Part shown: positions 16,527 through 46,644 of the stretch, piece by piece
Layout: every line of letters starts with the position of its first letter
Position numbering within the stretch: position 1 is the first letter of the stretch
DNA from: Cyanidioschyzon merolae
Taxonomy: Eukaryota
Direction: 5' to 3' (one strand)
Length of the DNA stretch: 64,000 bases
NCBI GenBank assembly: GCA_000091205.1
Contig: AP006501.2
Notes under the pieces: model-generated
The model's input: only the letters and a program-made list of their open reading frames with translations
Told to the model about the DNA's origin: nothing
The model's database searches: none
Translations under genes and position numbers: made by a program

Positions 16527-17456
16527 ATGAATAGGCTCTCTATAAATTCTAACTCATGTGTCTGTAGAAAACAGATTGATTTGGCAGCATCCGGACGACA
16601 CGCTCTGCGTCGGTGCGAGGGGCTGCGGCCGGCCACAGCACGGCTAGCACAAGTCTGCGGCTTCGTCGCGGGCCCAGCAACGACATGGAACCGGGATCAG
16701 GGAAAGACCCAACAGTGTCGGACTTGTGCCCGTTGCTGTTTCAAGTATGGGCTTCGGGGGGCGAATTTCTCGCTTGCTGCTCGAGCCCGGTCCCATTCTC
16801 GACTCGTCTGCTGCGAGGGCCAAAGCGTCCAGCACGGGCGCACTGAGCGCTCCCCCGTCGGGTGCAGCAGCGAGCTTCGTCGAAACAACAAGGGCGGCGG
16901 ATCAGGCCCCGAGACCGAGATCACCGTAGAACCCGAGGTAAGCACGGCAACGATCGCACGCGAGGTTGAGCGATCGTTTGATACGGTTCTCCAGGAGCTG
17001 GCGGCGATTCAGTCGGACTCGCCGCGAAACGTGGCGATTCTAGGAACCCGCCATTGCTCATACTTGCACCAGCAAATCATTGAACTCCTGACGTTTGCCA
17101 ACGTGCTCCTGGGAAACCATGTCATCACCTCGGGGGGTATCGGTAGCAATATGGCCGTGATCCGTGGGGCGCTGCGGGCCGACAAGCCCGAACTCTTGAC
17201 TGTCGTGCTGCCGCAGAGTGTCGAGAAGCAGCCTACTGAAGTGCGCGAATTGTTGGAACGTGTGACACAGGTTGTGGAAATGAAGCAGAATGATAGCTTA
17301 CCGTTAGATGTCGCGAGTAGACTATGCAACTCAGATATCATCAGCAGAGCGGATCGTTTCATAAGTTTCGCGTTCCACGATAGTGAAGTGGTGCTGGAAG
17401 CCGCCAGGGAGGCTAAGGCACTGAACAAAGTAGTCACTTTACTGTATTTGGACTAG
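16527..17456 (+). CDS. SLOG (Smf/DprA-LOG) Rossmann-like domain protein, DprA-like
   Basis: The track ORF starts at GTG 16470; the first in-frame ATG is at 16527. The C-terminal ~170 aa follows the DprA/Smf SLOG pattern: NVAILGTRHCSYLHQQIIELL (cf. vaiVGsRkas.yG), VITSGGIGSNMAVIRGAL (cf. vvSGlArGiDaaAHrgAL), TVVLPQSVEKQP, then ...SRADRFISFAFHDSEVVLEAAREAK. The N-terminal ~140 aa is Cys/Arg-rich and may be a targeting sequence or not coding. Confidence 0.45.
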   Translation: MNRLSINSNSCVCRKQIDLAASGRHALRRCEGLRPATARLAQVCGFVAGPATTWNRDQGKTQQCRTCARCCFKYGLRGANFSLAARARSHSRLVCCEGQSVQHGRTERSPVGCSSELRRNNKGGGSGPETEITVEPEVSTATIAREVERSFDTVLQELAAIQSDSPRNVAILGTRHCSYLHQQIIELLTFANVLLGNHVITSGGIGSNMAVIRGALRADKPELLTVVLPQSVEKQPTEVRELLERVTQVVEMKQNDSLPLDVASRLCNSDIISRADRFISFAFHDSEVVLEAAREAKALNKVVTLLYLD

Positions 17457-25206: not shown

Positions 25207-27954
25207 TTATGCAAACTTGGGAAACGACTCGCGCAAAGTCACCGTTCTGTTGAAAACGAGGTGAGGTGGCGAGGCCTCAAGCTGGGAGTCCGGGTCCACG
25301 CAATAGAACCCGACTCTCTCGAACTGAAAAATAGCGCCTGGTTGCCAATCATCCGCGGATTCGCACCGAGCTTGTTGCAGAATGCGCTCGCTCTTGGGAT
25401 TGAAGAAGGTCAGCCACCCGTCGCGCTCTGATAGGTTCTGCTCGGCAGCGGCTTGAAGCGGATCTTCCACGCAGAACAGGGGCTCGTACAAGCGGCATTC
25501 ACAGGGCATGCTTTTCTCGGATACCCAGTGCAACACACCTTTTGGACGAGGTTGCGGTAATTGGGTGAGAATCTCGGCATGCAGCAACTGAACTTGGTCA
25601 TCACTTGTGGCGGGCGCATGCTGGGCAGTCAAGGCGGCAAGAACGCGAATCGCGAACCCAGTGTGACGCAGCAGGGCTGCTTTCCCTGGTGCAAGCCCGT
25701 AATAGTCCTTCGCATCTTGTAAACGAAAATCAGTTCGCTCCAAGTAGATCATCGGGGTAAATTCGAGCGTACGCGTGCCCAACTCGGGTCGTTTGGGATG
25801 GTTCGGCACCTGCACGGTAACTGCTTCCGCTGCCGACAGCGCCTGGGCAAAGTTCTTCAGCAGCACGGGCAACGGTTCGAGCACCACCATGCGACGCGGA
25901 GCATGCTGATCCATATACTGACGCACACAAGCCTCTAGCTTGCGCAGATGCACGTTGTTCTCCGCCCGTGAAAACCCTACACTAGCCACAAAGTGGTTAA
26001 TGGCGACTGGCGTGTAGCCCCGGCGCCTCATGCCAATCAGGGTCGGCATGCGTGGATCATCCCAACCGCGCACTAAGCCGCGCTCAATGATCTGGGTTAG
26101 TTTGCGCTTGCTCAAAACCGTGTGTGAAAGATTCAAACGACTGAATTCAAAAACGAACGGCCGATACATGTCGAGAGCCTCTAGCAACCAGTAGTACGAG
26201 TCCCGTCGTATCTCGAATTCCAGCGTGCACATCGAGTGCGTAATCCACTCCAGCGAGTCGACCAGGCAGTGCGTAAAGTCGTACGACGGATAGATGCACC
26301 ATCGATCTCCGACGTGCGGATGCGCTGCGTACTTGATGCGGTATGCGACGGGGTCTCTCATGACAGGATTCGGATGCTGCATGTCGATCTTCATACGAAG
26401 AACGGCGGCACCCTCATCGTATAGTCCAAGACGCATCCGCTCGAAGCAGTCAAGGTTCTCCTCGACGGAGCGATTTCGCCACGGAGACGGACGCTTCTCT
26501 TCGCGATCGCGCGCCATCTCCTCAGGCCGCTGATGGCACACATAAGCCTTGCCACGTCGAATGAGTTCCACAGCGAGTTCATGCAGACGGTCGAAGTAGT
26601 CGGAAGAGTACGTGATCTGGTAGGGTTGATAACCCATCCACTGCACTGTCTCGATGATTGAATCGATAAAGGCCTGCTCTTCTGTGTCGGGGTTGGTGTC
26701 GTCAAAGCGCAGGATGCACCGGCCTCCGTTTCGCATTGCGTAACCAAAGTCGAGCAACATCGCCTTGGTATGACCGCAATGAAGATGTGCGTTCGGCTCA
26801 GGCGGGAAGCGCGTGACAACAGAGCATCCATCCGTATTTGCACGTTGCAGAGCGAGCAGCTCCGGTGTATTCCGCATGGAGTCTAACGATCGTGCGTCGA
26901 AATAGGCTGGTAGCGCTGCAAATGGATTTTCAGCGAGCTGCGCGTCCGTTTCGTTATCGATAGCCGATCCCGAGCCGATACCAGCGTGCCCGTCTTTCGT
27001 CTTTGGTGCGGAACTCGCAGACGTCGCGGTGTTGAGCATGCGTCGGTTGGTTTTGCAGCGATCATCTGATGGACGATCTGCCGCCTCTTTGCTGGTGGTC
27101 GTTGAGGCGCGCGATCCCGCTCCGGCCTCTGACGAGCGTGGGCCCAGCAACGCAAAGAGTTTTGCATCGACCGCTTCCTTGATGCGGCGGCCTTCAACAA
27201 AACGAACACGCCGCTGAACACCAGCGATAATGGGACCAAGTGGATACTTGTAGCCCCGCACCAACAGGTCGTCCATGATTGTCCGAATTTCTTCGTCGAC
27301 TGCAGCCGACAGCGTACTGTCGTCAACAACAACGCCCGCACCCACTGCAGCATTGAAGTCGTCGCGGTCAACTTTGCCCTCGGCAGCTGTGCCCGGAGCC
27401 GACTCGAGCAGCGCCTCGAGGTAAGCGAACGCCGCTTCGAGCTTGGCCGTGTTGTCGATGCGCCCGTCGCCAATTGCTTCAAAGATGAGCTCGCGAAAGC
27501 AGCGCAGTTTTGTCGGGAGCTTGCTCACAGCCACATAAAGCAGCGAGGCTTTCTGCGGCGTGAGTGCCTGCTCCTCAGGCAATCGATCCGCAGTCGACTC
27601 CAGCGCTGAACGTTTGGCCACTTGCACGGCCTCAGTTAGTGCCGCCTGGACTTTAGCCGACCGTGCGACCGCTCGAAGGTTTCGATCCTCAAGACCTAGA
27701 GCTCGCAACTGATCTAAGAGACCATCGTCACCGGAGGCAGCTGCAGCGACGGCGTTCGTCTCCATAACTACCAACGCAGCCGCAACGCAGCCGCGACACA
27801 GCACGACGGGCGCTAACGGGAGAGCCGTGCGTAGACGCCTGCGAAACGCCAGGCGTGGGAAAATAGCCCCAGCAGGGCGCTGCTGTCCAGGCGCTTCGAT
27901 GTCCGGTTTACGGCTGCGTTGCGATCCTGGCGTATGCACTCGGGTGCAGTGCAT
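25207..27954 (-). CDS. Glutaminyl-tRNA synthetase (class I; GlnRS), with possible alternative start at 27765
   Basis: ATG at 27954 checked. A second in-frame ATG at 27765 (checked) begins METNAV...LLDQLRALGLEDRNLRAV, which matches the GlnRS N-terminal domain. HIGH-type motif PEPNAHLHCGH. RFDDTNP and THSMCTLEF are GlnRS-type rather than GluRS-type. KMSKS-type VLSKRKL. Confidence 0.85.
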   Translation of the reverse strand: MHCTRVHTPGSQRSRKPDIEAPGQQRPAGAIFPRLAFRRRLRTALPLAPVVLCRGCVAAALVVMETNAVAAAASGDDGLLDQLRALGLEDRNLRAVARSAKVQAALTEAVQVAKRSALESTADRLPEEQALTPQKASLLYVAVSKLPTKLRCFRELIFEAIGDGRIDNTAKLEAAFAYLEALLESAPGTAAEGKVDRDDFNAAVGAGVVVDDSTLSAAVDEEIRTIMDDLLVRGYKYPLGPIIAGVQRRVRFVEGRRIKEAVDAKLFALLGPRSSEAGAGSRASTTTSKEAADRPSDDRCKTNRRMLNTATSASSAPKTKDGHAGIGSGSAIDNETDAQLAENPFAALPAYFDARSLDSMRNTPELLALQRANTDGCSVVTRFPPEPNAHLHCGHTKAMLLDFGYAMRNGGRCILRFDDTNPDTEEQAFIDSIIETVQWMGYQPYQITYSSDYFDRLHELAVELIRRGKAYVCHQRPEEMARDREEKRPSPWRNRSVEENLDCFERMRLGLYDEGAAVLRMKIDMQHPNPVMRDPVAYRIKYAAHPHVGDRWCIYPSYDFTHCLVDSLEWITHSMCTLEFEIRRDSYYWLLEALDMYRPFVFEFSRLNLSHTVLSKRKLTQIIERGLVRGWDDPRMPTLIGMRRRGYTPVAINHFVASVGFSRAENNVHLRKLEACVRQYMDQHAPRRMVVLEPLPVLLKNFAQALSAAEAVTVQVPNHPKRPELGTRTLEFTPMIYLERTDFRLQDAKDYYGLAPGKAALLRHTGFAIRVLAALTAQHAPATSDDQVQLLHAEILTQLPQPRPKGVLHWVSEKSMPCECRLYEPLFCVEDPLQAAAEQNLSERDGWLTFFNPKSERILQQARCESADDWQPGAIFQFERVGFYCVDPDSQLEASPPHLVFNRTVTLRESFPKFA

Positions 27955-28490: not shown

Positions 28491-29085
28491 GAGAATCCGA
28501 TACCCGCCGGTGGTCTGTTTTCAAAAGCCCTCTGCCGGTCGACAGCACGCGACATCAGGCTGCCAAACTCGGTTGCCACGCTGGACTTGTCGCCGGCATT
28601 CCAGACCGCATCGCTCTCGTTAACGATCTCAATCTTTCAAACAGTCGATTCAACGAAATTCACCAGATTCCCCCAAACGAGCGACTGCTGTCACGAATCC
28701 GCTGGAAAACGCGCAGTTTCCGCGCACTGCGTGTTTGGCAGGCATCTAAACTAGAACTAATTATATTATTAGGGACTAAATTACCATGTGGAAGCATTGG
28801 CGCTTCGCTGGACGTGGCGCGACGGCTGCCCGCCAGCCTCCCGCAGCACCCGCAACGTTGACGCTTCAGACGAAACGGTGTATGCTGGTATGCAGCTCGG
28901 CTGCAGTCGTTCCCGCTACTTCACGTTCGGGTTGCCTTCAGGGTCTCGAGACCTATACCACTAGTTGATTGCGGATAGTGGTGGCTTGACGTGTGTTTGT
29001 GTGTAAGCCGTACGGTGAGCGCGCTCTCGCGAGGGCGCGCGCCCTCATCGGACGTACAGTGCACGTCTGACACGGTGCGCTCGTG

Positions 29086-30222
29086 ATGGCGTGTCGAAAC
29101 CTGTGGCGCCTACCGCTCTCGCGCCGCTGGACGGGGCCTTCTTTCGCTCGTAGACGTGCGTTGAGTTTCGAGTACATTGCAGATGAAGCTCCCGGTTGTT
29201 TTGAGTGGTTTCTTGACTGGACGTCGCAGTTGAGTACGCTCTGCGCTCGGTACACAGGTCCTGTGTTCGTCTGTCTTGGCCTAGCGCTGATAAGTTTAAT
29301 CGTCTTCTCCTATTTTCGTCACATGTTACCAGCTCTCTATGAACTTGCGACGCGAAGCCCCTACTCAGGTTGGGCGCAGACGGCACTCCTCGTTCATCTC
29401 GTCATAGCACTCTACCTCCTCTACTGCGTCGTGTATGCGTACGCGAAAACGGTGACCACGGACCCCGGATCGCCGCCGCTCGCCGAAACTGTTCAGATGG
29501 CAGCACTTGATCCCCACATCGACGTCGCCGTCGTCGACGCAAAGCAGGGACGCTGCGCGGCTCGTGCTGCCACACCAAACTGCACCTGGACTGTCTGCGG
29601 ACGATGTCGTCGGTGGCGACCACCGCGCACACACCACTGCTCCGTTTGCCGCCGCTGCATCCTGCACATGGATCATCACTGCATCTGGATGAACGCGTGT
29701 GTAGGTTACCGCAACTACAGGTTCTTTCTCTCGACACTCTACTTTCTGGTCGTCGGGGCCGCCGATACGGTCGCTACGGTTCTCTTTCTCTGGTGGCGGG
29801 CATCGCATCGGAGAGAACTGCGCACGAACATCTGGCTCCTCTATTCCTTCGCACTGGCGCTTTGCCTCGGGGTCGCATTGTTGCTGCTGCTGGTGTTTCA
29901 CATTCGGATTCTTTCGCTGGGCCTCTCGACGATCGATTATCTCGCTGGCGGTGCGCGTGGCGCTGAGTCCGTAGCTGCACCGGTCGACTCGGGCGAGCGC
30001 ATGCAGCCGGGCTCGCAACTGGACCCCACGATCGGCAGGCATGGGCGTGCACCCCGACAAAGTCGCTTTTTCGAGCGGCTGCGGTTGAATGCTCGCAAGG
30101 TATTCGGCATCGAAAGACCATTGTGGTCTGTTTTTTTGTTTCCTCCCGTGCGTGGGGGCTCGAAAGAATCCCTTGCAGGCGAGCGACACCAGCCGGCTTT
30201 GCTTTCAGGCCTTGTGGTCTGA
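29086..30222 (+). CDS. DHHC-type zinc-finger protein S-palmitoyltransferase
   Basis: Track start 29083 is GTG; ATG at 29086. CGRCRRWRPPRTHHCSVCRRCILHMDHHCIWMNACVGYRNYRFF is a canonical DHHC-CRD. It is flanked by four predicted TM helices. Confidence 0.8.
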   Translation: MACRNLWRLPLSRRWTGPSFARRRALSFEYIADEAPGCFEWFLDWTSQLSTLCARYTGPVFVCLGLALISLIVFSYFRHMLPALYELATRSPYSGWAQTALLVHLVIALYLLYCVVYAYAKTVTTDPGSPPLAETVQMAALDPHIDVAVVDAKQGRCAARAATPNCTWTVCGRCRRWRPPRTHHCSVCRRCILHMDHHCIWMNACVGYRNYRFFLSTLYFLVVGAADTVATVLFLWWRASHRRELRTNIWLLYSFALALCLGVALLLLLVFHIRILSLGLSTIDYLAGGARGAESVAAPVDSGERMQPGSQLDPTIGRHGRAPRQSRFFERLRLNARKVFGIERPLWSVFLFPPVRGGSKESLAGERHQPALLSGLVV

Positions 30223-30690: not shown

Positions 30691-32421
30691 TCATTCCTCT
30701 TCCATGGGTACGTCGACCTGCACCAGCTCGATATCGAAGATCAAGAGTGCATTTTTCGGGAGCATTTGTCCGAACATTTCGGACATATTCTCGCAGCTTT
30801 CCGGGTGCACGTAAACGGTGCGCGCCTCGCCCTCGTGCATGTCGAGAACGATCTTTCTGAGCGCAGGCGGAGCGTCACCCACGCGCATGGTAATTGGATT
30901 CACCATTTCTCCGTTTTCATCGGACGGGCACGTAAAGAAGAAGCGCCCATCCAATAGACGGCCTTGCAACACCATCATGACGTTCACGTCATCGCTTTCG
31001 CATTTCTTGTGTGAGCCCCCTGCGGTCGCAGACGGCTCAGCGTCGTCGACTTCCTCCCAGACAATACGATCCGGTTCCAGGACATTAAACAGTTCTGGCA
31101 TTGTCTTTGCGGTCTCGAAGAAAGCTTCCGCCTCTTGCAAATTGATTTCACCAACGACATCATTCGCGATACCTTGTAGGATGCCCATCTGTCGCTCGTA
31201 TTTTGCGATATTAACCGGAAATTCTTTGCCGGCAAGCGCGTCACGAAAGCCGCGAATCACAAGCTCGTGATCGAGGCCGAATCCCGAGTTCAACAACGCC
31301 TGACCCAATGCAAAGCCATAGCCTATGGATAATTCGTTGAGATTCAGTCCCTGAGCACGTGCGAGCTCGCGCGTGCGCTCATCTCGCAACCGAGCACTCT
31401 CCTTGGCGGGATTTTCGGCCTCTGCGTCGTCAGCGCGTTCATCGTCTCCGGTATCCACCATGAGCCGGGATGAAGTCTGATGCACACCGTCGTGATGCCT
31501 GCGGTCGCTACCTGCCGCTGCATGGAGTGCGGAAGCTGCGCGCGCTGCGCCACTCGTCTGACCTGCTGCCTCGGTGGCGGCACTCAGACCTCCCTGCTGG
31601 GCGAATAGCTCTCTGGCAGCGCGCATAGACTCAGCCCATTTCTGAGGATCCTCCACAACTTCACGAAATTGCGGATCCGCATCCATCCATTGACGCAGAA
31701 AAGGATTGTTAAGGAGCGCTTGGCGCGACTCCTCCTGCTTCTCCGCAGATGAGAGGTACTCCTGCATTGCAGGCGATTCCCATAGTCCGCCCATTAACTG
31801 GGTCATCTGCTGCAACCAGTTCATGGTATCCGCCTGATCGCCACCTGCGGCGCCGCTGTTACCAGCGAGGAGCGACTGCAGGAGCGCGTTCGGATCAGCC
31901 ATGGCTGGGTTGGCGCCGCTGCTCCGCGAGCCTCGACCGCTGCTACCTGTGCCCAGGTTGCGCAGTTGCCGCGCAAGTGACTCGACGTCAGCAAGGCCAG
32001 CCCGTGAGCCTGAGCCTGCTCCTGCTCCTCCGGTTCCGGCTGAGGCCGCGGACGCCGTCCCAGACGTGGCTGTACGCGAGTTCCTCGAATCGCTTGAGGC
32101 GCCCGCAGCTGTGCTCTTCGTCGCCCGACTCGACGACGACGACGACGACACTGTGGCACTGTCAGCCGTGATACCGGGTCTCACGTTCCGCACTACGCTC
32201 ATAGTAACCTCAGTGAGCGCTTCATCAATGCCGTACGCTGATAGCGTTTGCTGCGGATTATCGAGTACCTGCCCACGGTACATCAGCATCTGATTCGTGA
32301 CCGGGATCCCGGCGCTCTTCTCCACCTCATTCTGGATCTCGTAGACAGAAGTGTGTACTCCCTTCTTAGGTACGACACTTATCTTCTTGCCGTTAAAGCA
32401 ACGAACTTGGAGCGTAAGCAT
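30691..32421 (-). CDS. Ubiquitin-like domain + STI1-like region + C-terminal FKBP-type peptidyl-prolyl isomerase domain (unusual fusion)
   Basis: ATG at 32421 checked. N-terminal UBL: MLTLQVRCFNGKKISVVPKKG...LMYRGQVLDNPQQTLSAYGIDEALTEV (ubiquitin-like). Middle: NPFLRQWMDADPQFREVVEDPQ is STI1/ubiquilin-like, with poly-Ser/Ala/Gly linkers. C-terminus: DDVNVMMVLQGRLLDGRFF...ITMRVGD...VLDMHEGEARTVYVHPE...LPKNALLIFDIELVQV is FKBP-like. Single uninterrupted 576-codon ORF. Confidence 0.7.
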   Translation of the reverse strand: MLTLQVRCFNGKKISVVPKKGVHTSVYEIQNEVEKSAGIPVTNQMLMYRGQVLDNPQQTLSAYGIDEALTEVTMSVVRNVRPGITADSATVSSSSSSSRATKSTAAGASSDSRNSRTATSGTASAASAGTGGAGAGSGSRAGLADVESLARQLRNLGTGSSGRGSRSSGANPAMADPNALLQSLLAGNSGAAGGDQADTMNWLQQMTQLMGGLWESPAMQEYLSSAEKQEESRQALLNNPFLRQWMDADPQFREVVEDPQKWAESMRAARELFAQQGGLSAATEAAGQTSGAARAASALHAAAGSDRRHHDGVHQTSSRLMVDTGDDERADDAEAENPAKESARLRDERTRELARAQGLNLNELSIGYGFALGQALLNSGFGLDHELVIRGFRDALAGKEFPVNIAKYERQMGILQGIANDVVGEINLQEAEAFFETAKTMPELFNVLEPDRIVWEEVDDAEPSATAGGSHKKCESDDVNVMMVLQGRLLDGRFFFTCPSDENGEMVNPITMRVGDAPPALRKIVLDMHEGEARTVYVHPESCENMSEMFGQMLPKNALLIFDIELVQVDVPMEEE

Positions 32422-34239
32422 CCGAGGAGACTCGATACCGACTGCACCTCAACCCGGGATGAAGCGACTCGAACGACGCCGGCTGCTCGTGAGGCGCACT
32501 ACGCTGGCCGGGCGCAGCAGCGGGGCGTGCGCAGCAGCGGGGCGTGCGCAAAGCGCTTGGGCATCGACGCACAGATGCATATTACGGCCCTAATTGTTCT
32601 ATTTTATTCTGGATCTTCCAGGGCCCTGCATGCGCGACGTGCCGCAGCAGGCGGCATTCCATGGTGTGCAGGCTCAAGATGACGCTGACCTGCTCATGAT
32701 GCAGTTTTATTACGGGGGATCCCTGGATCGAACGGGGTATTTGGTAGATACGTCGTTGCTTTGCGCAGATGGTCAGCAGAAGGAACAATGCTCTACGACC
32801 ATAGAGTGTACATCGATATATATCCACTTAGAGACGCTTTCCAGTGTTTTTTGACCGGCAGAATGCTCCGGGCTTCAGTTTCCCCCTGTATACTACGAGC
32901 GTGAGACGCTTCCCCGCAACGTTAAATCGCTTCAGTTCCTCGGTTCTCTTCTTTGGCGCTAGACATCGTCTTATATTCATGGCAGCGTTAACGTCTCGGA
33001 TCACGAACCCCACGCGTGCATTGCCTCTGGTGGAACTCATCAATGGAGGCATTCCTCGAACTCGTACCTTCTGTGCCAATACGGTCTCGTCGTTGGCGTG
33101 TCGGGCAAGCACCTTTTCTCGTCTACCTCTCCTCTTTCTCTTCTACTACTTTACCACTTGTTCTTTTTCGCTTGATGGTCGACGAGAGAGGATTTTGTTT
33201 CGTTTCTTTTTCAGGCAGCCGGAGACACCAGATCCCAAGATCCCCTACTTCCGTATCCATCCCTTTGCCCTGAATTTTCATTTTTGAAAATGGACGCACT
33301 TTGAACGTATCTGCTACAAACCGCGAAGACGCATTTGATCACACTCACCCTGGGGTGCAACACCATTGAAGCGAAACACTACAGTGGGTGCATCCATGAT
33401 GGCACACCAGACCGCCTGCTTCCACCGGGCACCATGCAAAAGTACCACGACCATCAGTCAGACTTTCCTCTCCGAATCATGGATAGCTCCAGAGCTACGT
33501 TGGACGTCGAGCCTGGTGTTGGCTGGAATCGCGGCGCTCAGCCAACGCTCAGCTGCAGACACCGCACAGAGACGGGACGGCTCTGTGGCATCCGCATGGG
33601 CGTCGGCTCGAGACCTGTACATAGTGGCGGTCCCGAACGCAAATTATAGGACGCTGTGAGATCCTGGTGAAGCATCGAGCAGTGTTTGTCGCAGAAGCCG
33701 CTACACGCGCACCTATATACCTATGAAGACTCATGTCGGTGTGGATGGAACGTGTCCACTCACTGGACACGTACATTCCGGAGGTTCAATCTCTTCCAAC
33801 TGATATCAAGATCAGCCTCTTGGGAGCTACTTCTGCGACTGCTTCCTGTTCCCCATTTGTATATCTGGATTTCAAAACGCCGGCTTCTCGCGTCCTTTTA
33901 GATCCATTCTCAGCAGTCGAAGGATTTTGGTAGCAGCGTCCAAGCCACGGCTTCGCTGTTGTCCTTGTTTTTCGCGCCCAGGCAGGAGATGCGATGTATG
34001 CTTCGGTGCACCGTTTGCAGAGCCGTCAACGCACAAGGGTCAGGTATTCCCATGAATGTCCCATGCGCATCATACTTTCGAAGGCTGCTCTGTGGCGCCT
34101 GTGCGCTTGCTTCATCGCTCACTTCATGCTTTTGACGGGTACAGAAAGATCGCCTCGATGCCCTCCACCGGTTCCGCGCCCGATGCAGCAGCGCTCGATA
34201 ACATGCGTCAGCAGGGCGAAACGCCTCGGTGCACCGCTG

Positions 34240-35049
34240 ACAGCGACAGACGCAAGCACTGGCTCTTCCATTCGATTGCGAATGTCTGGATGGCGATACG
34301 GTCCGTGAGGAAACAGGTACCCGAGACAAAGTCCATACTGGAGGAAAAGTTCCGCAATTTCGACTCAACTACGCTCCCTTCGCACCCACACGTGACCTAT
34401 TGACCACCGGAGGCGATCGCTACGATGACTGCAATCCGGGTCCTTGGCCGTTTTCCATGCAAGCTGAGGAGCGCGGAGCCGCTGGGAGCGTGCTCCCCTG
34501 TGAGCGAGGTATCATGCTGCAGTCGACTTTGGTATCGTGGATGGCTACGACGAGATGCGGATTCGTGTTTCGGAAGACATCGATGATCGGACGCGAGCGG
34601 TTCCGTGAGCTGCCGCCTCTGACAGCCTGTGGTCGACTTGTCACTGCGCGACGTCGCGATGCGCTCGATGTGCACCCAGCGGCGCGAGTCGCTGCGTCCA
34701 CGCGGTGCCTTGGCGGGGAACCATCGAACACGTGAAGCGGGCGTGATTGGAACATGCTCCGCATTCGCACAAGAGCGTCACGGAGGCTTGGAGGTATGCA
34801 CGGGATACTGATATCGGTTGCTTTATGAACCGTACGCGGGAGGCGTCACGAGTCGCGTTGATTACGGTGACGTGCCGATGCCAGCGGGAGAGCGTCGAAC
34901 ACGTCACTCTGGACACTCGATCGAGAATCCCTGAACCTCGTATGAAACCGTTGGCTCTGACAACTGCCATCGGCATGTCGAGGCTATGTGTTTCTGAAAA
35001 CCCAAGTCCGAAACAACATCCGAATACGTGAACCGTACGATCATCAGTA
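34240..35049 (+). repeat. Dispersed 810-bp element, copy B (near-identical to 23503..24312)
   Basis: Exactly 10,737 bp from copy A, same orientation, ~99.4% identical. It ends 406 bp upstream of the VPS13-like ATG. Confidence 0.8.
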
Positions 35050-35454
35050 CCATGGTGTCCTACCACGTTCTCGCCGGCGTCTAGACGCGCGCCCGTGCAG
35101 TGTTGAGTCTCGGATGCGCGGGCGTGTGCAGTTCCATCTGAATCATGAACAAGTCTGAACTTTCATAGATAATCTTGAACGGAGCGTTTCTTCATCCGGC
35201 ATGCGATGCGATGCGCTGCGCCGAGCCCCAACCAGAAACGCCTCCAGCTCCCGTTGATCCGCGAAACACTCGTACTCGCGGCTCGCCGCGCGAACAGCCA
35301 TTCATGGTGTGCCGCAGAATTCGCAACAGCTCCTTGACGTCCTGTATCCAAAACGTCTGGAGCGCTAGCACGGCGCTTGCGTACAAGTCTCTAGCAAGGC
35401 AGTTGCACCTGCAACCGCGCAAAGCCTTCAACCGCGAATGGTAACACCTGAAGC

Positions 35455-35972
35455 ATGCTGGAACGTTTTGTCGTGCAAAGGCTCTTGCGCTTCCTTGGTG
35501 ACTTTATCGAAGGCGGCCTCCAGGAGGAGCAGCTCTCGCTTCTCTTCGGTACCGGGAACAGCGTTGAGCTGCGGGATGTGCGTATCCGCTCGGACCGTCT
35601 GAAAAGTTTGCTCGCTGGAATCGGTTCGCCGGTGTATGTCCTGTGCGCCTCTGTGGGTACTTTGCGCGTGTCCATCGACCTGCGCGGGCGCGTCGCTGTA
35701 ATCGTCCGTGACCTCGTCGTTGTGCTCGCTGACCAGTACCCCGAGGCCGAGACCCGCCGGTCCACTGCCAGAGAACGCTATCGCAAAGCGATTCTGCGGA
35801 TCGATCAGGCGCAACGTCATTTGCGCCTGCAGCAGGCTTTTGAGGCAAGACCGCAACGCTCCGCCGCTACCGCCTCCGACGATGACAGCACCACTGTTTC
35901 TTCTTCGTCTTTAGCGGGACAGCGTTCGAGTGCATCCCCTCGTCGTCAAAACGACCGCCGCGATTCTCAGAC

Positions 35973-36011
<39 letters not shown>

Positions 36012-39000
36012 AGGAAGCGGGTGGGCCTTCTTCGGCTCCGGTGTGATCGAGTCGCTTATCGCGTACGTAGCGGATCGTCTCAGCATTCAGGTGGAGCGTG
36101 TGGTGCTCGGCTTTGCCGACCAAGGCGTGGTCATGCGCCGCGCCAAGGAGGTCTCCCCTCGCGGTTACCACTGGATCACTGTAGCATTCCTGGATCGCAT
36201 GCTGACCTCGGACTGGTCCCCGGAAAAACAGGAAGCCCCGTCCCTGGAACCCGCAAACGTACCAGGAACAGCTGCGAATCGGAGCAAGAACTTATTCGGT
36301 TCCGCACAGACAACAATTGTTCGAAAGCGACTTGCGCTCTCGGGGCTGCGTCTTAGCTGGATCCCCGACGGCAGCAAATCCCTCCGCAACATCAGCTGGA
36401 GTGATCCAGAGCTGGTACGCGAGTCTCTTTGGCGAACACGCGAAGAAAATGATGCCGACATTCTCGGACCCATAGAATTCGGCATTGGTCTCTACGTGAG
36501 CGGCTTCCGGGACTCGTTTCGTACCTGCATTCAAGCCACAGGGAACAACCTCGACTGCTCGCTGTCGCAGCTCCAGTATCTCGATATGGTGTCGGCAGCG
36601 CTGCGTCTGGGTGTTGGTCAAATAGCCAAGCTGTCTCTGTTGAGTGAGGAAATGACACGTGGCTCCCAGGAGTCCGCTGATCTTGGCCCAGGGATGCGAA
36701 AAACCGCCAGAGGCGAAGGAAGCGCTCCTGGACGTGCCGCAGCCCGCGAGCGCTGGGTGCAAGTCGTGCGCCATGTGCGACAGTCTGTTCGCCGTCGACA
36801 CGTCCCCTGGACCAGAGAGCACCTTTCCATGCAATGGACAAGACGCAAGCAGTACTTGGCGACATATTTAGCAGCAAATGTCCGCAGCGACAACCATTCC
36901 TGGCGTCTCGTGCAAGCGCTGGAGGAAACGATGGATTTAGAACAGATTCTGGCTCTGAGGGCCACCGCGGAAGCGTTGGTGCAACGCAGTCCACAGGAAG
37001 CGCTTGCGCTCTGTGATGAGGTGTCCATAGCCGCCCTGGTGGTGGTCAGTACACCGCGTTTCCAGCGTCTGCGACAGCAACGCCTAGTCTCCTGGTGCTT
37101 ATGGATGCTCTCCTGCATTTGGAGACTCGGCGCGCTGCTCTGGAGTGTACTGGAACGTCGCATATGGGGTCTGCGGCCGCTAGCCCACAAACTGGTACAG
37201 ATAGGGCGCACGCTGCGGCCGCCAATTCTCCAGGTATTGGCCGGTCAGTGGCTGCTCTCAGCGCCGACATTGCTTCCCGCAACCTCCGAGGAGGACGCCG
37301 ACCTCAGCCAGACAACAGAACATATCCTGGGTTCACTACATTCCTACATCCACACAGACTATGAGCGTTTCCTGCAACAACGCGACCTTCGCAGCAAACG
37401 TGCAAGTTCACCGACAGCCGCGCTAGCACCAACCCGAACATCGTCAATGCTTTCTGGCGAGCACGGAGGACGGAGAACTGCATGGGAAAGTGCGCTTGCT
37501 GCTGAAAGTGCAGTATTCCAACTCGATGTATCCGTGAACCGCGTGCAGCTGGCACTGTTCCAGGAACACCAACTAGTGGCGTTCACAGGAGCTCGTGCGT
37601 TCGCGGCACGCAGCAAACTGCTCAGCACCGCAGCAGTGCAGCACATTGGATGCCAGCTGTTCATCTCGAGTGCCCAGAACCTTGCAGTACGGGCCTGGCT
37701 GGCCCAGCTGCAACTCCGGGACGAAGCGAACAGGATCCTGGTGTGCAACCGCTATTGCCCTGGAAACCATGAGTCCGCTCACGGGACGCAGCAGCCACAG
37801 GCCCGGAACGCTGAAGAATCCGTTCCGGAAAGTGACCTCTCGTTAACTGGGCGCGATGAAGCACCCGAGGCTTTCCAGTTGCGACTGTGGAATCCTCGCC
37901 AAGGACTTGTTGATCTGGAACTGGATTTTGCGCCCTTGTCCGTTCGGATTTCCGCTGTACTGGTGCAGGCTTTGCTCCGGTTCTGGATACCTGAAACGCT
38001 GGCCTCCTTTGCGATGCAGGGCAGACGGTATGCTGCGCGCGTCCTACATGGTCTCCAAGAACGCCTGGTCCGCTCTGATGATGCTACTCTTGTTCAAAAG
38101 CTGAGCTCCATGTTCATGCAGCTTCGCTTTGGAGGTATGTTCATTGTTTTCGATGAAGACTTCCGGCTTCTGGAAGGCGCTGCAGTGACCTCAGCGGAAC
38201 AGTCGTCAACGTCACCCGAAGCATCACCTGCGTCGCTGGTGCTTTGCGTACAGCTCGCTGGAGCAGAGTTTCTCATGGGCGAGGAAACCGCCTTGACCGC
38301 TCACAGACAACCAGCGGATCAAGCGGTGCTCTTGGGCATCGACGCATTTGCCTCGTCCGTCCAGAAAGCACAGCAGGTGTTTGCCTTTCTGTCATCGTCA
38401 TCATCAGAGACGCGGGTGGACTTGCAGGGTACGGGCACCGACGAGCCCGCGCAGCAGACCCCACCGGAGACGCCCTATGTGGTCGACTCTCGCGTGGTGC
38501 TGCGCTTTCCGGGCCTAACGATCGGCTGGTGCCATGAAACCTCCGTTGAAGCGGCTAGCGCAGTTGTGCCCGTGCGAACGCTCTTGCAACTGGGCACCTT
38601 GCGGATTGGCAACACGATCGAACACTGCCTCGTAACGCAGGATCAACGACCCAAACTCCTAGCGCGGATTCTGGTGGGCATCCTCCTGGAACGACTCGCA
38701 GTGACTGCGGGCCTGAGCGACATCTGGGCGCTAGTGCAGGTCGCTTTGCGTTACCAACGTGTCATCCAGGATATACAGGTGATTTTGAGAGAAAACGATG
38801 CAGATCTATCCACGACGAGTCACCAGAACAGTTTGGACTCGCTTCGGGAGGCAAGCATATCATCGAACGCTTCGTCATCATCACCAGTAAGGAGTCGTGA
38901 AGCAACCAACTCGATATCGCGGGAGCTCGGTGCTGCGAAGATGCATCCGCCGCAACTGCAACAAAAGAGAATGCGAACACGCGAACGTGAACCGCATTTG

Positions 39001-42000
39001 CGAACCGCGTTATCGTTGAGACTGAACGAGCCCCTGCATGTGGAACTAGCTCTGGATCATGGCAAGTCTGCGACGATGACCCGTCACTGGCTACTGCGTT
39101 CCCGGATCGGCGTTCAAGGGCGACTGCTCCTGTACTCCAACCAGTCGATGTTGAGCCAGCTGCAGGCAAGCGGTATCAGTGTGGAAGCGGATGCATCAGG
39201 AGAGCGGCCCCGTTCCTGCCAAGTGCTGTTGGTAGCTCCCTTCCAGGGCGAGTTGGAGGCAATCTTCGAAGCCGCTGCTTCTACTTCTACTTGTACGACT
39301 AGTGATGCTACCGCGCTGCCGACACTGGACTGCGCACTGCGCTTGGATGCGATCGATGTGGTGCTCCCGTTCTCGTTTATCAGAGAGCTGGTGGATACTG
39401 GACTTGCATTCGGTGCCCTGTTGCACCAGGAAGTGACCCGCGCTGCGCCACCCGGGTCGCTGGAGACTCCGGTTACCATCACCCGGACAAGAGCAGCGGA
39501 TGATCAGGAGCCGTTCCTCTGGAGCGCAGACTTGAGCGCCCTGCCTGGCAACGCGAGCCTTGTCTTCGAGTTTGCTACCTCGGATCGAGCTGGCTACCTG
39601 GGAGTCGACCATCAGGGCCGCGTCCACGGTCCGGTACCCCTGGAACAAGCTGCGCGTTTCCGCGTTCAGCGGGTGCGACGCAAGGGCGCTCCCGTCGGTG
39701 TGATGCTGAAGCTTGAAACGGACCAATCCTCGGGCATGACCAGCACTTTTACGGTGCAAGTACTCGCGGACTTGTCGGATGTGTCGTTCGATGGACGTAC
39801 CACGAAGCCGACCCCAGCTGGGCCACACCTGGGTATCCGTCGCATTGCACCGGAGCTCCGGGACGAGGTTTGCCAACGCTCTCTGGAGCGGCTTTCCACG
39901 AACGGTACGGAATCTTCGGTGCTGGAAGCAACAGCTGGTTCGGAAGCAGGTGAATCCTCGGGAACGCTACCAGCAGCAGCAGCAGCAGCAGCAGCAGGGA
40001 CTCTCGGCTCATCCGGAAGCGCAGGTAACCGCCCGGAACGCAGCCGCTCCCTGAGACGATGGCTCGGAAACTCCGACTCGAGTACTCGATCCAGTACTGA
40101 AGTCGGAAGCGCTGCAGCAGACAAGGCGGATCGTCGCCAGCAGCGAAGCATCGCTACAAGTGCAACCAAACGAAAGCGTTGGCGAACCCGAGTAGCGGCT
40201 GGCGCTGGTGCTTCCACTGCTTCTGCCGATGATGATGATGCTGATGCTGATGATGATTTTGGTAATGAGCGCAACGATCAAGTGCTGCGTGCCTGTACCT
40301 GGGAATCTGTACCTGTTCATGGCGTGGCGGAAGCAGTCCTTCTGAGGCACGAAAAGAGCGGCCACTGGATAGGGCGAACACCAGCAGCTGGACCTGTTGA
40401 AGCGCACGACGCATCCAGTCCGGATGAAGCGCTGCACCTTGACTTGTTGCCCGGCGCTAGTGCAGCGCTGCCGTTGCGTCCGCTGCTCCTGCAACGGGCC
40501 CAGCACTTGGCCCAGTTCCAGCCGCTGATACGGATTCGTGCACAAGTGGCTGCCGCGGGCGTGCTCGTTCGGCTCTACGAATGGATGGACGAGGCAGCTC
40601 GCTATCGACTGCCGTTGTTAGCGCTCTCCGCGGTACCCATTGATGTACAGTCGGAGGTTTGTGTGTACCCCAGTGCGGCTGGCGTTGAACCGGAGCTCTC
40701 ACTCGCGCTCTCGTTGTGTCCGACGGTGAGCAGCTACCGTTTGGCACAGAGGCGATGGCGCGACCTGCTCGAGCCGGTGCCACTCTCTATGCAGGCGAGT
40801 TTGCGGGGAAAGCCTCGGTTTGTGGCGTTCCAGCTGCAGTTGGGCACTGCCGAACAACCGCTTCGGTTGCATGCGTACCCGCGTGGTGTGCACCTTATCA
40901 GCCAGCTGCTGATGGACCTCATGGATCGGACTGCAGCTTCGCGACTCACCACGGACTGGTGGTATTTCCACAACGAGACCGAAGCGACCCTGCAGTTGCA
41001 ATGGGACCTCAAAAACAGCACCCAAAACGTCGACAACGATGATAATGTCGACGTCGACGAGCCTGTTGTCGTCTATCCGGGTCAATCGGTGTGTTTGTAT
41101 CCGCCACGAGCCCTGTTGAGGCGAGCGCTGGTGCGCCTTGCGGACCTGGAAGCCGCCGCTCGTCAAAGAAGCGACGTTCCAGAGCCGTTCACTGCGCGTA
41201 TCCAAGTCGTGGGCTTCGGAACGCTACCTCCAGTACCGCTGCAAACGTCGGATGTGGTATCGCTGCCGCTCGAGCCGGACCCGGTTTGTACGACGAGTGC
41301 CACGCCAAGCGCCCGAACTCCGGTACCTGCAGACACAACCGAGAAGCAGACGCGTGGCGGTCGAGTCACCGCAGCATGCTCTGCACCTGCTGAGCGCTCC
41401 GTAAGCATTGCACAGCGCTCTGGAACGGAGTATCCGGCTGAGCGGGCTGGTGCAGACCCGACCACTTTGACAGCGACACGGGCGGCATTGTCCCAGCGAG
41501 TGTCCGCCGAGCAGCGGCTACCGACGGATGCACCTTTTGAGGTCCGGGCAAGTATCGACACGATGCAGCGTGGAAACGCAGCTGCACAACCACGTCTGCG
41601 TCTCCCAGGAGCAGCAGCAGCACCAGCAGTAGCAACTGACTCGACTCGTCGTCGTGTCGACGACAGTGAACGTGCGGCGCCTGTTGTGCTCTACTGGGTG
41701 CGCCTTAGCGATGGCTATCGTGACCATTTCTACCTGTACAGTCGGACCAAAGTCGCGAACCGTTGTCGAAGCATCGCCTTGTACGTACACGGTTTCCTAC
41801 CCGAGCACGAACGCCGTCATGCGGAAACTGTGCTTCGGAGGCAGGGGCGATCACCAGCGCTGGTGCTTCTGCAGCTGGGACGCACAGCAACTGCGCTTCG
41901 TTCAGCATCGAAGGAACCTTGGCGCAAACTCGGTCGAGGATTACGAAGCTTTTTCGGCATTCGGTCAAAGACACGGGCGATTCCCGAGCGACCAGCACCG

Positions 42001-42354
42001 CTACCCGGCTTGCCAGCGGAATCGTCTGGCTCTTGGTACGCGCTGATGCCGGTGAACATGCCGCAGTCTGAGTCCAGTGCCTCTGCAGCACCGGTTTCGG
42101 AACCTGCTGCAGGTGTGCTGGAGCCAGAGCAGGCACTCTTTCTGGGGACTTTCCTGCGGCCGACGCGCCTACGCCTGCTCCCCGTCACATCGACAAGTCA
42201 ACGCGTGTTCAATGAGGAGGCGTCTGCTATCGGAGGTCTAGAGTTTCCGCTCGTTGCTGGCCAGCTATCGCTGACGAGGAGCTATTTCCTGGTAGCTGCA
42301 GCGGTGGACGCTTCGTGTCAGCGCTTTCGCGTGATGGAGGTGGGTGCTCGTACT

Positions 42355-42389
<35 letters not shown>

Positions 42390-44595
42390 TCAACGGCTTG
42401 CGAACGAATACAACATTCGTCCGGCATTGACGATCCTTCACGAGTTGCCGTACCCAGCTAGTCTGCAAGTTGTCGACGCCGACGGGAACCTGCACTCGAC
42501 CTACGCCTTGGACGCTTGGGGCTCGGTGGAAGTTTGTGAGCTCTGGGGCCCGCCACGCGAAAACCTCTTGGTGCATCGCCTGCTGGGCAGTGCAGGCTCG
42601 ACACGAGCGCCAAGCACCGAACCCAGTCGCACAGACGGGAATTTCGCACCAGCACCAGCACCAGCACCAGCACCAGCACCAGCACCAGCAGGAGATGATG
42701 ATGAGGATGATCATGACGATACTGATGTGACTGCCCGCACCGTCGCCATTGTGCGTCTCCAGAACGCCAGTTCAGCAGGTAAGCGGCCCAGTACACGTAC
42801 TGGGGCGACTGGAAAGGCCTCGCTTGCCGCAAACTTGGCCTTACACTGCGAGGTGGAGCGCCATACCCTCTCGTTTCGCTTCGGCTACTTTCGTGCTCGC
42901 CTTGTCCGCAGCGAAACCCGCGGCCGTATCCTGGTGCTCTATGCTCCGTTTCTCCTATGCAACCAGGTTCCGGGTATTAGCCTCTGTTTCCGCCATGTGC
43001 AAGGAAACCGTAAGCCACTGCCTTCCGCACAGCGTCAGCTTCGCAGGATCGGCAGTCAGGCGACATCCGCAGTGCAGCGACTAGCGGGACAGGCGGGAGC
43101 GGCTCCAAAGCGACTCGGAGCACATCTCCGGCCAAGAGAAGAGGCAACGATGCCCGAGCGTGGAACGAGTCGTCACCCGGCTCCAGTATTGTCGTCGCCG
43201 TCGACGTCGACGACGACGACTTTATCATCGGCTGCGGCCTCGGCTCCAGTGGACACTGCACGCCATCTGGGCACTGACGTCCAGGCTGATAACGATGATA
43301 ACGATGGGACTGTTCTGACGAGTGCATCGGCAGCGTCTCCCGAGGTCGTTGCTGCCGACGACCCGGACCCAGAGGCAGTCACCACAGAGATTGCACCTGC
43401 AGCGTCAGAAACAGCGGTCGTCTTCGATGCTGCTTCGGAGCCCGAGTCAGCGAGCACGGTTTCCGCGGACACGCTGACACAAGCGACCCGCAGCGATACC
43501 ACAGCGGTCGCCGCTACCCTGAACAAGCCGCAACGTCTGGTGCATCGAAAGAAAGCGGAAGCGTCGCGACAGTTTCTGGTGCCTCCAGTCAACCTCGCCG
43601 AAGAAAGCGGTGCGCCCAGCTCCGATGCATATCTGTACTGCTGGAAATCACAGCAAGCGTTGATCTGGGTGAACGGAGCACCCCGCCGCAATACCCAACA
43701 TCCCGTTCGACTGGCACCGTTTGGTCGAGGTAACAAGGGCTTTGGGGTGCCGGATGCGCTCGTCGGACACCTGCTCGAGCTTGTGACCCAGGTAACGCTG
43801 CACAGCTACCGAGACCGTACTGCCGTCCTGGATACACCGCTCCCGAACGCGCGGATCCTACAGCTACGACCGCGGTTTGAAGTGCGGAACACACTGACGG
43901 AGACCCTGAGTCTATGCGACGCCGTAGACTGGGAGCGTTTTCGCCTCGAGCAGGCGCAACACGAAGAGCACAAGGCCACACTGCCGGTATGTGCGGTGTC
44001 TGGGCTCGTGCCCGGCATGCAGCAGGTGCCGGCAGCAGTCAGCAGCCCAAAGCAGCCCGGACGAGCAGCGGTCACTTTTCATGAAGCCAACAAGGGACGC
44101 TTTGCACGTATTCGCCTTGACGATACCGGGTGGTCGGGTCTGATCGACTTCACCGACCTGAACGGAACGAGCGTTGCGCTGCCGCGAGCTCGTCGTAACG
44201 CTGACCAGTACTGGGTCGACGAGCACGTACCAGTGTATGGGAGTGTGAGGATGGATAATGGACGACTGATCTGGACGTTTCAGAGCAAGCACGTCGCTGC
44301 CAAGGGAATTCGCTTTGTGAACCGGACGCGTTTCGACCTGGTGGTGAGGCAGAAAGCGAAACGCGCTGATCGGTTGCGCTCTTTGATGCGTTCAGCAACA
44401 CGCGATGCCTCCCACATGATGGTACAGACGCTACGCGGGGTCACTTCTGGAGCAGCGAGTGCAGCAGCGAGTGCGTTCGGTATGGGCATGCGTAACCGGA
44501 ACACCGGAACCGGAACTGGAACTGGAACTGGAACCGCAACCGCAACCGGAACTGGAACTTTGTCAACAAGTGGCTCTCGTACGCTTGCCGCCGGT

Positions 44596-44634
<39 letters not shown>

Positions 44635-46644
44635 GTCACAGCGGAAACGTCTATCATGCCGCAGACCCCGCAGGGGCAACGAACCGACCCGGGCAAGCCG
44701 CTGCGTATCACACCGGATACCTCGCTGGATAATGCCGCTTGGATGATATTCCATGTGCCACCGAAGAGCGAACGGGTTTTCTACTGGCCTGAACCGCTGG
44801 GTTCGTCCAAGCTCCTGCTGAAACTATTGCCTGGAGAGGCAGGCCTGGCGACGGCGTTGGCGAATCCCCAGCTCTTTGCGGATGCAGTGGTGGTACCAAC
44901 GCGTCAACTGCACCCGGAACCGCGCTGGTTGGCACAACGACGGGGACACCAGCCAGCGTTCCTGTATCGAATGATAGCCCAGGGGCCGGAACGACACCTC
45001 GTGGTCGACGAAGGCACCACCAGTACATTGGCGAACGAACCTGCCTGGATACCGCGCTTTCGATTGGACGCGCAGCTCAGCTTGCCGACGCTCTACCTGA
45101 ACTTGTACAACTTGCAGGCGCGTCCCTTGCTAGAGGTCCAACTGCAGCAGCTGGAGGTGCTCGCGAATGCCGGACTCCGACCTGACCAGCAGTTGGCGAT
45201 CATGACGCGTCTCGACGACCTGGTGCTTCTGAACCGCATGGACCGTGCTCGTTCGCAACGCGTTGTCAGCAAAACTGCAGGATCGTTGACCAGCGGTGAT
45301 GACCGGAGCACCCCAGCGCCCGCTACGAACAACAAGGGCGTTGCCAACGAAACACCGAGTGAGCTGCTGGTCGTTGCCCTGGTACTACGACATGTCCAAC
45401 GCGATCTCCTACATGTGAGCGCTTTGCAAGTAGAGCTCACGCCGCTCCGAGTGAACCTGGAGCCAGCGCTTCTCTATGAAACCGTGCTTACCCTGGTGAG
45501 TTGCTATGATCGTGCACGGTGCTCGTCGTTGACTGCAACGCAACGCAGAAGCGCCATGTCGTCGTCGTCGTCGTCGTCAACGAATGCAGGTGCTGGAATC
45601 GGCAGCAGCGTTACCAGTCCAGGTTCATGCAGTGTACACGAGGCCCAGACAGGTCGCCGGGAAGTGCGCTCTACCAGAGCTGTGAGCAGCGGCGCCCTGG
45701 CATCGCTTGCGCTACCCGCTGAACGCACTCGTTCACTACCGGCAGTCTACATGGAGCAGGGCGCCATCGGTGACCTGCAGATCCTGCTCACCTGGAGAAA
45801 GTCATCTGCGAAGTTGCTCCTTGCACGCGTGGAGGCAGCAGCGAGTCCGCGTCTCGCCGAGGCTGTCCAGCAAATACGCGACCTCCTGGCATACGTACCC
45901 GCAGTGCGTGACGCGCCCATGCGCCTGAGTGGTATCATGCTCACCGAGTACCTGGCTACCATGGAGCAACTCGTGCATCGGATCGTGCAGCACTACATAT
46001 GGAGCGGGATTCGTAACGGGTATGCACTCGTCGGCTCGCTGGATATGCTCGGAGCGCCGCTCAATATCTGGGGCCACACCAGCGGTCGTGTGCAAGCCAT
46101 TTCACAGGATATTTCGCATGGACGCCTGGGCAAAGCCGGCAAGCACATGGTAACGTTTATCGGTGGCACTGTAGGCGACGTCGGTCAGTCGTTTACCGGT
46201 GCGCTGTCGTCGTTTGGTGGTATGGCGTGGCGGCGGCTAAAGTGGCTGCAGCGCGCTCCGTCACATGCTATGAACCCGTCGTCGTCATCGTCGTTGTTGC
46301 CTACCGACTGGGGAGAAGGCGACGACAACGACAATGACGACGGTGCTGGTAGAGATGCAGTTGAGAATGCACGCCCCGGTGGTAGCTTACCGCTGCGTGC
46401 TGGTCAGGGCGGCTCGCGTGGTGCCAAGACGCGGCAGCGGGCACCGTGGGCAGCACGTTTTGTCGCCCGCTGGTTGCCTGGCGGTGCTGGACGGCGACCG
46501 GCTAGTGCCACCACCGGAGCACCAGCACCAGCACCAACAGCAGAGCCTAGCGTTCAGCCGACTGTACCTCCGTCGCCACTGGACTGGCGTCGAGCGCTTC
46601 TGGGGTATGCATCCGCGAGCGACGCTCGTTCGGGTAGCACCTGA
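35455..46644 (+). CDS. VPS13: VPS13-family bridge-like lipid-transfer protein (chorein-N N-terminus, VPS13/ATG2-type C-terminus), 3729 aa
   Basis: ATG at 35455 checked. N-terminus MLERFVVQRLLRFLGDFIEGGLQEEQLSLLFGTGNSVELRDVRIRSDRL matches the chorein-N motif. C-terminal LGAPLNIWGHTSGRVQAISQDISHG...GKHMVTFIGGTVGDVGQSFTGALSSFGG matches the conserved VPS13/ATG2 C-terminal region. Very long, with many low-complexity inserts. Confidence 0.8.
35974..36009 (+). repeat. (CAG)12 coding microsatellite (polyQ) inside the VPS13-like gene
   Basis: cagcagcag... read directly; translated as Q12-13 in frame. Confidence 0.85.
42646..42690 (+). repeat. (GCACCA)7.5 coding hexanucleotide repeat encoding (Ala-Pro)n in the VPS13-like gene
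   Basis: gcaccagcaccagca... read directly. It gives APAPAPAPAPAPAPA in frame and a spurious CWCWCW ORF on the opposite strand. Confidence 0.85.
44495..44558 (+). repeat. (ACCGGA/ACTGGA)n coding repeat encoding a (Gly-Thr)n/(Ala-Thr)n dipeptide tract in the VPS13-like gene
   Basis: aaccggaacaccggaaccggaactggaactggaactggaaccgcaaccgcaaccggaactggaact translates as NRNTGTGTGTGTGTATATGTGT. A (CAG)12 polyQ tract follows at ~44599-44634. Confidence 0.8.

Follow-up and report, generated by a model that had tools for sequence, protein, structure and literature searches.

Shuttle factors of the ubiquilin/Dsk2 type, which pair a ubiquitin-like (UBL) domain with a ubiquitin-associated (UBA) domain, are thought to act by reading ubiquitin chains. 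Bacterial Mip, FkpA and FkbA are dimeric periplasmic or surface chaperone-isomerases. Mip and FkpA form V-shaped homodimers whose chaperone activity does not depend on the isomerase site; in FkpA this activity, independent of peptidyl-prolyl isomerase (PPIase) activity, is located in the dimeric N-domain. STI1 domains of Dsk2, ubiquilins and Sgt2 possess a groove that binds hydrophobic or transmembrane helices, and they also bind transient helices in their own linkers (PMC13083955). Here we describe a gene of the red alga Cyanidioschyzon merolae, located in a 64,000-nucleotide stretch of contig AP006501.2 (GenBank assembly GCA_000091205.1; hereafter the window), whose predicted product brings elements of these systems together. 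It is a ubiquilin-like protein, spread phylum-wide, which has a chaperone-type and probably dimeric module in the place of the ubiquitin reader. What is new is the architecture itself: judged by sequence, it is conserved, built from familiar modules and confined, among named sources, to Rhodophyta.

The UBL-STI1-FKBP open reading frame (ORF) lies on the minus strand at 30691..32421, with its ATG at 32421 and its stop codon at 30691-30693, and encodes 576 amino acids (aa) plus stop. No internal stop interrupts its translation, in which the modules follow each other in the order UBL (aa 1-80), STI1-like domain (aa 197-277), FKBP_N (aa 358-441) and FKBP_C (aa 480-569). An earlier note on this DNA had seen here a continuous frame of 576 codons, free of frameshift and probably encoding a single polypeptide, in which a ubiquitin-like N-terminus, an STI1-like middle and Ser/Ala/Gly linkers lead to a C-terminal FKBP domain instead of a UBA domain. 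The frame stands as described, with the minus strand to be added, and so do the two Pfam families named for the ends of the protein, since PF00240 and PF00254 both score above their cut-offs; FKBP_N and PF23195, supported at family level, now join them.

Judging from sequence and predicted fold, a whole unit of the Mip/FkpA type makes up the C-terminal half, and not a bare FKBP domain, because FKBP_N precedes FKBP_C and because the matches run over full-length Mip and FkpA. FKBP_N (aa 358-441; 31099..31350, minus strand) comprises the N-terminal (dimerisation) helices of the Mip/FkpA type and a long connecting helix at aa 405-439; its mean identity is 56% and its length 84-85 aa across orthologues. 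PF01346 is matched in 10 of the 12 orthologues (best E 4.9e-7), with passing scores of 26.4-26.6 bits. An acidic hinge (aa 442-479) and the FKBP_C-like domain (aa 480-569) follow at 30715..31098, also on the minus strand. The hinge is variable (24% mean identity, 31-65 aa), whereas FKBP_C, despite its non-canonical pocket, shows the highest mean identity of all modules (64%, 90-91 aa). PF00254 is matched at aa 480-567 with 30.6 bits against a cut-off of 21.1.

Full-length comparison leads to the same proteins. Using HMMER, aa 361-570 were aligned with residues 11-209 of Legionella Mip (1fd9), and an alignment of nearly full length was obtained with Pseudomonas aeruginosa FkbA; the module profile matched Mip-type proteins with E values of 1e-12 to 1e-10. 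The AlphaFold2 (AF2) model, a monomer prediction made from the 12-sequence alignment, has helices at 361-372, 385-396 and, the long one, 405-439, followed by a beta-rich FKBP fold at 446-569 with a predicted local distance difference test score (pLDDT) of about 80-88. The best Foldseek matches in the Protein Data Bank (PDB) were full-length Legionella Mip (8r39, 8bjc, 1fd9), Escherichia coli FkpA (1q6u), FkbA (7dek) and Trypanosoma cruzi MIP, with E values of 1e-10 to 1e-7 over about 200 columns.

No UBA domain was matched by Pfam in the C. merolae protein even at E<=10, nor was one present in the 12 orthologues, and the chain stops 7 residues past the FKBP fold. The claim that an FKBP domain takes the place of UBA is thus sustained. 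The fold is clear, but its pocket is degenerate, and its description as a bare FKBP domain fell short, FKBP_N having been overlooked.

At the opposite end, the UBL domain (aa 1-80; 32182..32421, minus strand) matches PF00240 at aa 5-68 with 32.7 bits (cut-off 25.4) and is predicted with confidence in the AF2 model (pLDDT about 85). Ubiquitin was the best match of the UBL profile in a sequence search of the PDB (about 1e-14 per unit). The region is 75-114 aa long across orthologues, with a mean identity of 41%. The L8/I44/V70 patch of ubiquitin is represented by three hydrophobic residues, F9, M47 (leucine in most orthologues) and V77, of which F9 and V77 are nearly invariant among orthologues. 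Since the C-terminal Gly-Gly is absent, the sequence describes a UBL that is integral and cannot be conjugated, like those that dock on UBL receptors. In nearly all orthologues the UBL begins at residue 2-5 and no N-terminal targeting extension precedes it. A signal or transit peptide is therefore not predicted, and the protein is expected in the cytosol or the nucleus.

Between the two ends lies a Met/Gln-rich helical domain of putative ubiquilin STI1-like type (aa 197-277; 31591..31833, minus strand), 75-85 aa long across orthologues and with a mean identity of 56%. It contains the motif NPFLRQWMDADPQF at aa 239-252 (window positions 31666-31707), inside the match to the ubiquilin-1-like family PF23195. 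This family was matched in 11 of the 12 orthologues (best E 2.3e-9), one of them, P0009, reaching 28.3 bits. In the full-length AF2 model the domain is a helical bundle with pLDDT 53-78; modelled alone, it forms a six-helix bundle with pLDDT 82.5. The structural neighbours that stand out are weak: the HDD domains of Ddi2 and Ddi1 are the top two Foldseek hits with E about 1, and the match to yeast Ddi1 HDD is weak by hidden Markov model as well (E 0.078).

The domain is bordered by two low-complexity linkers, as had been noticed before, and disorder is predicted in the AF2 model for aa 81-197 and 278-335. Linker 1 (aa 81-196; 31834..32181, minus strand) is rich in Ser, Ala and Gly (22%, 20% and 16%), has pLDDT below 50 and varies across orthologues from 75 to 137 aa with 22% mean identity; a short conserved helix occurs in it around aa 145-154 (ADVESLARQLR). 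Linker 2 (aa 278-357; 31351..31590, minus strand) is disordered and acidic/Ala-rich, with 15% mean identity and a length of 28-80 aa. In Cyanidiales it closes with a helix at aa 338-356 (ARLRDERTRELA).

Long low-complexity linkers set the two halves apart, and red algae do possess Mip-like paralogues devoid of UBL, for example Porphyra umbilicalis OSX72716.1. A UBL/STI1 gene and an adjacent Mip-like FKBP gene might thus have been read as one ORF. Such an artefact is very unlikely, indeed extremely improbable, because several lines of sequence evidence converge on one real gene and one polypeptide. At least 12 orthologues exist in several red-algal orders, and in all 12 that were aligned the module order is collinear. 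All share the start position, with the pattern M(L/T/S)..(V/A)(R/K)CFNG. Pfam detects ubiquitin and FKBP_C in every one of the 12, PF23195 in 11 and FKBP_N in 10. Although the linkers differ greatly in length, the frame is continuous in every orthologue, and mean identity to the C. merolae protein is 41-64% in the modules against 15-24% in the linkers and hinge. A single MMETSP transcript of Timspurckia oligopyrenoides, labelled as a complete ORF, holds the whole frame. An environmental protein from hot-spring metagenomes (P0001, 577 aa) is 100% identical over the BLASTP alignment, although its whole coding sequence shows the indel, the replacement and the synonymous changes given next. Compared with four environmental strains, the coding sequence differs by one 3-bp indel, located in the Ser run of linker 1 and in frame, by a replacement at codon 91 and by 1-3 synonymous changes. 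The genome, a cyanidialean one, is almost intron-less and has compact genes, which also speaks against the artefact. Two-gene read-through was accordingly rejected as an explanation, on the grounds of orthologue collinearity, the complete-ORF transcript and the conservation of frame.

When 1.84 billion representatives were searched exhaustively by HMMER with the orthologue profile, a small set of full-length matches (P0002, P0010-P0015) was obtained, together with fragments. Next in rank were polyubiquitins, and then proteins matching the FKBP_N/FKBP_C part alone. The members with a named source are Pyropia yezoensis KAK1866349.1, Galdieria sulphuraria XP_005705635.1, the Timspurckia oligopyrenoides transcript and Cyanidiococcus, the proteins of Cyanidiococcus yangmingshanensis being 73% identical (word-index search). 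Every named source of the UBL-STI1-FKBP architecture belongs to Rhodophyta, and no named organism outside red algae was found with it among the 1.84 billion representatives. Orthologues of the same build are thus at hand in Cyanidiococcus, Galdieria, Pyropia, Timspurckia and metagenomic relatives, and the impression that the combination is foreign to model organisms agrees with full-length matches being restricted to this red-algal family. A scan of metagenomes with the STI1 alignment found the same architecture and no other. Hardly any matches came from the word index when it was queried with the C-terminal half or with the STI1 alignment. Database names of the family are automatic only, such as 'peptidylprolyl isomerase'; XP_005705635.1 is annotated as 'peptidyl-prolyl cis-trans isomerase Mip'. 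No paper dealing with a fusion of UBL and FKBP or with red-algal ubiquilins came up in our literature searches, and red algae and FKBP are both absent from a review devoted to ubiquilins (PMC4230246).

Next, we examined the FKBP pocket, using two independent alignments, one by HMMER to P. aeruginosa FkbA (7dek) and one by MAFFT to human FKBP12. The canonical FKBP12 pocket (Y26, F36, D37, V55, I56, W59, Y82, F99) is not matched. In both alignments Y26 is replaced by L485, V55 by A517, I56 by P518, W59 by L521 and Y82 by E544. MAFFT alone adds that F36 and F99 are retained (F495 and F562) and that R42, F46 and H87 became M, I and M, respectively; L97 is retained as well, and the pocket is still hydrophobic. 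The equivalent of D37 is ambiguous: HMMER places F496 there and MAFFT D501, the latter across an insertion of 5-6 residues after F36. The changes are family-wide, every member having Y26L/V, V55A, I56P, W59L and Y82E/D/N. In the closest bacterial-type relatives (P0111, P0151, P0155) Y26, I56 and Y82 are kept, which indicates that the red-algal pocket is a derived state, and one under strong constraint.

The same pocket pattern is carried by the UBL-less red-algal paralogues Porphyra umbilicalis OSX72716.1 and Pyropia vietnamensis GAB0498473.1. The UBL-less Mip-like relatives comprise P0076, P0078, P0090, P0077 (Pyropia vietnamensis) and P0089 (Porphyra umbilicalis), both named ones being red-algal. 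The first three have a weak second FKBP_N-like stretch (E 0.15 in a BLAST check on P0078 alone) and a basic N-terminal extension, possibly an organelle-targeting peptide. The insertion after F36 is found in the UBL-less paralogues, too. Since they share both the degenerate pocket and this insertion, their sequences suggest either that the pocket change is older than the fusion or that the paralogues derive from the fusion protein.

That FKBP_C is better conserved than any other module, in spite of a non-canonical pocket fixed across the family, fits selection for binding over classical catalysis. The domain most likely binds something specific by means of a remodelled, Met-rich 80s loop (HPxxxxGMxxMFG) and the hydrophobic pocket, and it probably serves as a binding module instead of acting as a classical FK506-sensitive isomerase. 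The earlier note had linked a proteasome-shuttle-like UBL to a prolyl isomerase/chaperone module, which can be read as an active isomerase tethered by the UBL to the proteasome or another UBL receptor. The intact and highly conserved FKBP fold fits this, as do the retained F36, F99 and L97 with the hydrophobic pocket they imply, and nearly invariant D501, located in the loop past F36, might stand in for D37. We nevertheless consider it quite unlikely. The Tyr and Trp equivalents of the active site are not canonical, Y26, V55, I56, W59, Y82, H87 and R42 being replaced in every member, and HMMER puts a Phe at D37. Moreover, the best eukaryotic sequence matches of the FKBP module are domains 2 and 3 of wheat FKBP73, which we take to be non-catalytic, and the closest bacterial-type Mips do keep Y26, I56 and Y82.

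Taken together, these traits lead us to propose a cytosolic, probably dimeric quality-control holdase specific to red algae, a reading to which we would give roughly an even chance. That the protein dimerises, binds clients, docks on the proteasome and has lost PPIase activity we infer from the known behaviour of ubiquilin/Dsk2, of STI1 domains and of Mip/FkpA. As in the two latter proteins, FKBP_N would bring two chains together in a V-shaped homodimer. Unfolded or hydrophobic segments of clients would be held by the groove of STI1 and by the FKBP-like pockets, which are hydrophobic but catalytically degenerate. The integral UBL, with its conserved patch of the L8/I44/V70 type, would then dock the loaded dimer on a receptor, most likely the proteasome (Rpn1/Rpn10/Rpn13). 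As the Mip/FkpA-type unit would occupy the place of the ubiquitin-binding UBA, which is absent, clients would be picked by chaperone-type recognition instead of ubiquitin-chain reading.

Several observations weigh against this proposal. The C. merolae protein itself scores just under the cut-off for PF01346 (aa 364-441; 21.9 bits, cut-off 22) and under that for PF23195 (aa 213-272; 20.2 bits, cut-off 27). The middle domain matched no solved STI1/DP domain in the PDB, by sequence profile or by fold, so that its ubiquilin-type assignment, which the earlier note had also made, rests on the Pfam result at family level. To this the ambiguous D37 equivalent must be added, and some residual isomerase activity may persist, since catalysis leans on the hydrophobic pocket that has been retained. 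Finally, the proteasome is not the only docking partner of UBL domains: that of Get5, for example, docks on Sgt2.

A different role would be that of a pre-targeting factor, a holdase for membrane proteins and for proteins on their way to organelles, similar to SGTA/Get5 or to the triage of mitochondrial precursors by UBQLN1, with the UBL docking on a chaperone or targeting factor and not primarily on the proteasome. The middle domain is a putative member of the ubiquilin/SGTA STI1 class that binds transmembrane helices, and in three non-cyanidialean contigs, whose gene neighbourhoods are otherwise different, the orthologue stands head-to-head with a TIM50-like gene; this pairing could mean handling of organellar precursors in some lineages. 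The TIM50 adjacency is absent, however, from the C. merolae window and from the cyanidialean contig L006, where genes for a DHHC protein and glutaminyl-tRNA synthetase are the neighbours. In eukaryotes the neighbourhood of two genes is a weak sign of shared function, and the protein has no TPR or other known targeting-factor domain. On balance, we regard pre-targeting as somewhat unlikely.

For the quality-control holdase, a more far-reaching history can be imagined, in which red algae swapped the UBA of an ancestral ubiquilin for a Mip clamp of bacterial ancestry and so obtained a shuttle that leads from chaperone to proteasome independently of ubiquitin, is present throughout the lineage and possibly substitutes for canonical ubiquilin. 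We offer this as speculation that is unlikely to hold. The nearest bacterial Mips in a genome scan were that of an uncultured metagenome-assembled genome (MAG; P0111), a relative with 47% identity from a Verrucomicrobia MAG and, as a weak match, one from cyanobacteria. Two MAGs and this weak match are too little to assign an origin to the Mip module.

Should docking on the proteasome prove true, the protein would be a natural example of client choice by chaperone recognition and not by ubiquitin. It would also show that a bacterial-type Mip/FkpA unit, its pocket remodelled, has found a new use in the cytosol of eukaryotes. If it is merely another co-chaperone, it would be a lineage-specific curiosity. 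The function is directly testable, because C. merolae is genetically tractable and allows targeted knock-ins (PMC11376382).

The genomic surroundings are those of ordinary eukaryotic housekeeping. Neighbours of the gene in the window are a DHHC palmitoyltransferase (29083-30222), a glutaminyl-tRNA synthetase (25207-27954) and a VPS13-like ORF of 3729 aa (35455-46644), besides genes for a PPR protein, a GDT1 antiporter, a Y-family polymerase, a kinase and a CPSF-A/DDB1-like protein. The interval of about 3 kb (32422-35454) that separates the start of the UBL-STI1-FKBP gene from the VPS13-like ORF is devoid of long ORFs, and it is long for an otherwise compact stretch; the same gap, with small ORFs only, appears in the gene calls of the environmental contigs L001 and L004. 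It contains a 94-aa ORF (32828-33112, minus strand) with the string 'RDVNAAMNI', by eye reminiscent of the RuvC-III motif of TnpB/Fanzor. This resemblance was rejected as probably due to chance, since there was no Pfam match at E<=1 and no tblastn match in 72,556 plasmids. Three ORFs of 277-328 aa had no Pfam match at E<=1e-5 (12934-13767, minus; 16470-17456, plus; 52249-53208, plus). G+C content is about 0.50-0.52 at 52-58 kb and 0.54-0.61 in the rest of the window. Neither tRNA genes nor Rfam families were found in the 64-kb window.

In the three non-cyanidialean contigs, the TIM50-like gene paired head-to-head with the orthologue lies at L005:377-1573(-), L010:602-1924(-) and L012:6575-7111(-), the gap between the two genes being 108 bp in L005. 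It encodes a NIF domain, a presequence-like N-terminus, a hydrophobic segment, an 'LLP..P' motif and a degenerate DxDxT motif.

Compared with ubiquilin and Dsk2, the red-algal protein shares the N-terminal integral UBL with its conserved hydrophobic patch, the disordered linkers bearing short helices and, putatively, the Met/Gln-rich STI1-type helical domain, with its family-level match to PF23195. It has one STI1-like domain, like Dsk2, while animal ubiquilins have two. Unlike both, it lacks the C-terminal UBA, hence any evident means of reading ubiquitin chains, and bears the Mip-type unit there; because this defining domain is absent, it is, strictly speaking, no ubiquilin. To bacterial Mip, FkpA and FkbA and to T. 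cruzi MIP, its best matches in the PDB, it is similar throughout the N-terminal helices, the long helix and the FKBP fold, all of which align. It differs from these proteins in that the unit has no signal peptide and forms the C-terminus of a predicted cytosolic UBL protein, in the replacement of Y26, I56, W59 and Y82, and in the 5-6 residues inserted after F36.

Catalytically degenerate FKBP-like domains are known from FKBP51/52 (FK2), wheat FKBP73 (FK2/FK3), FKBP38 and AIP, and like these the red-algal domain keeps the FKBP fold while several pocket residues are substituted. The partners differ: TPR and Hsp90 in those proteins, FKBP_N, STI1 and UBL here. BAG1 and midnolin combine a UBL with a client- or chaperone-binding module in one chain and so link capture to the proteasome without UBA. 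What they have in common with the red-algal protein is this logic only; their capture modules, the BAG domain and the Catch domain, are unrelated to it, and no homology is implied.

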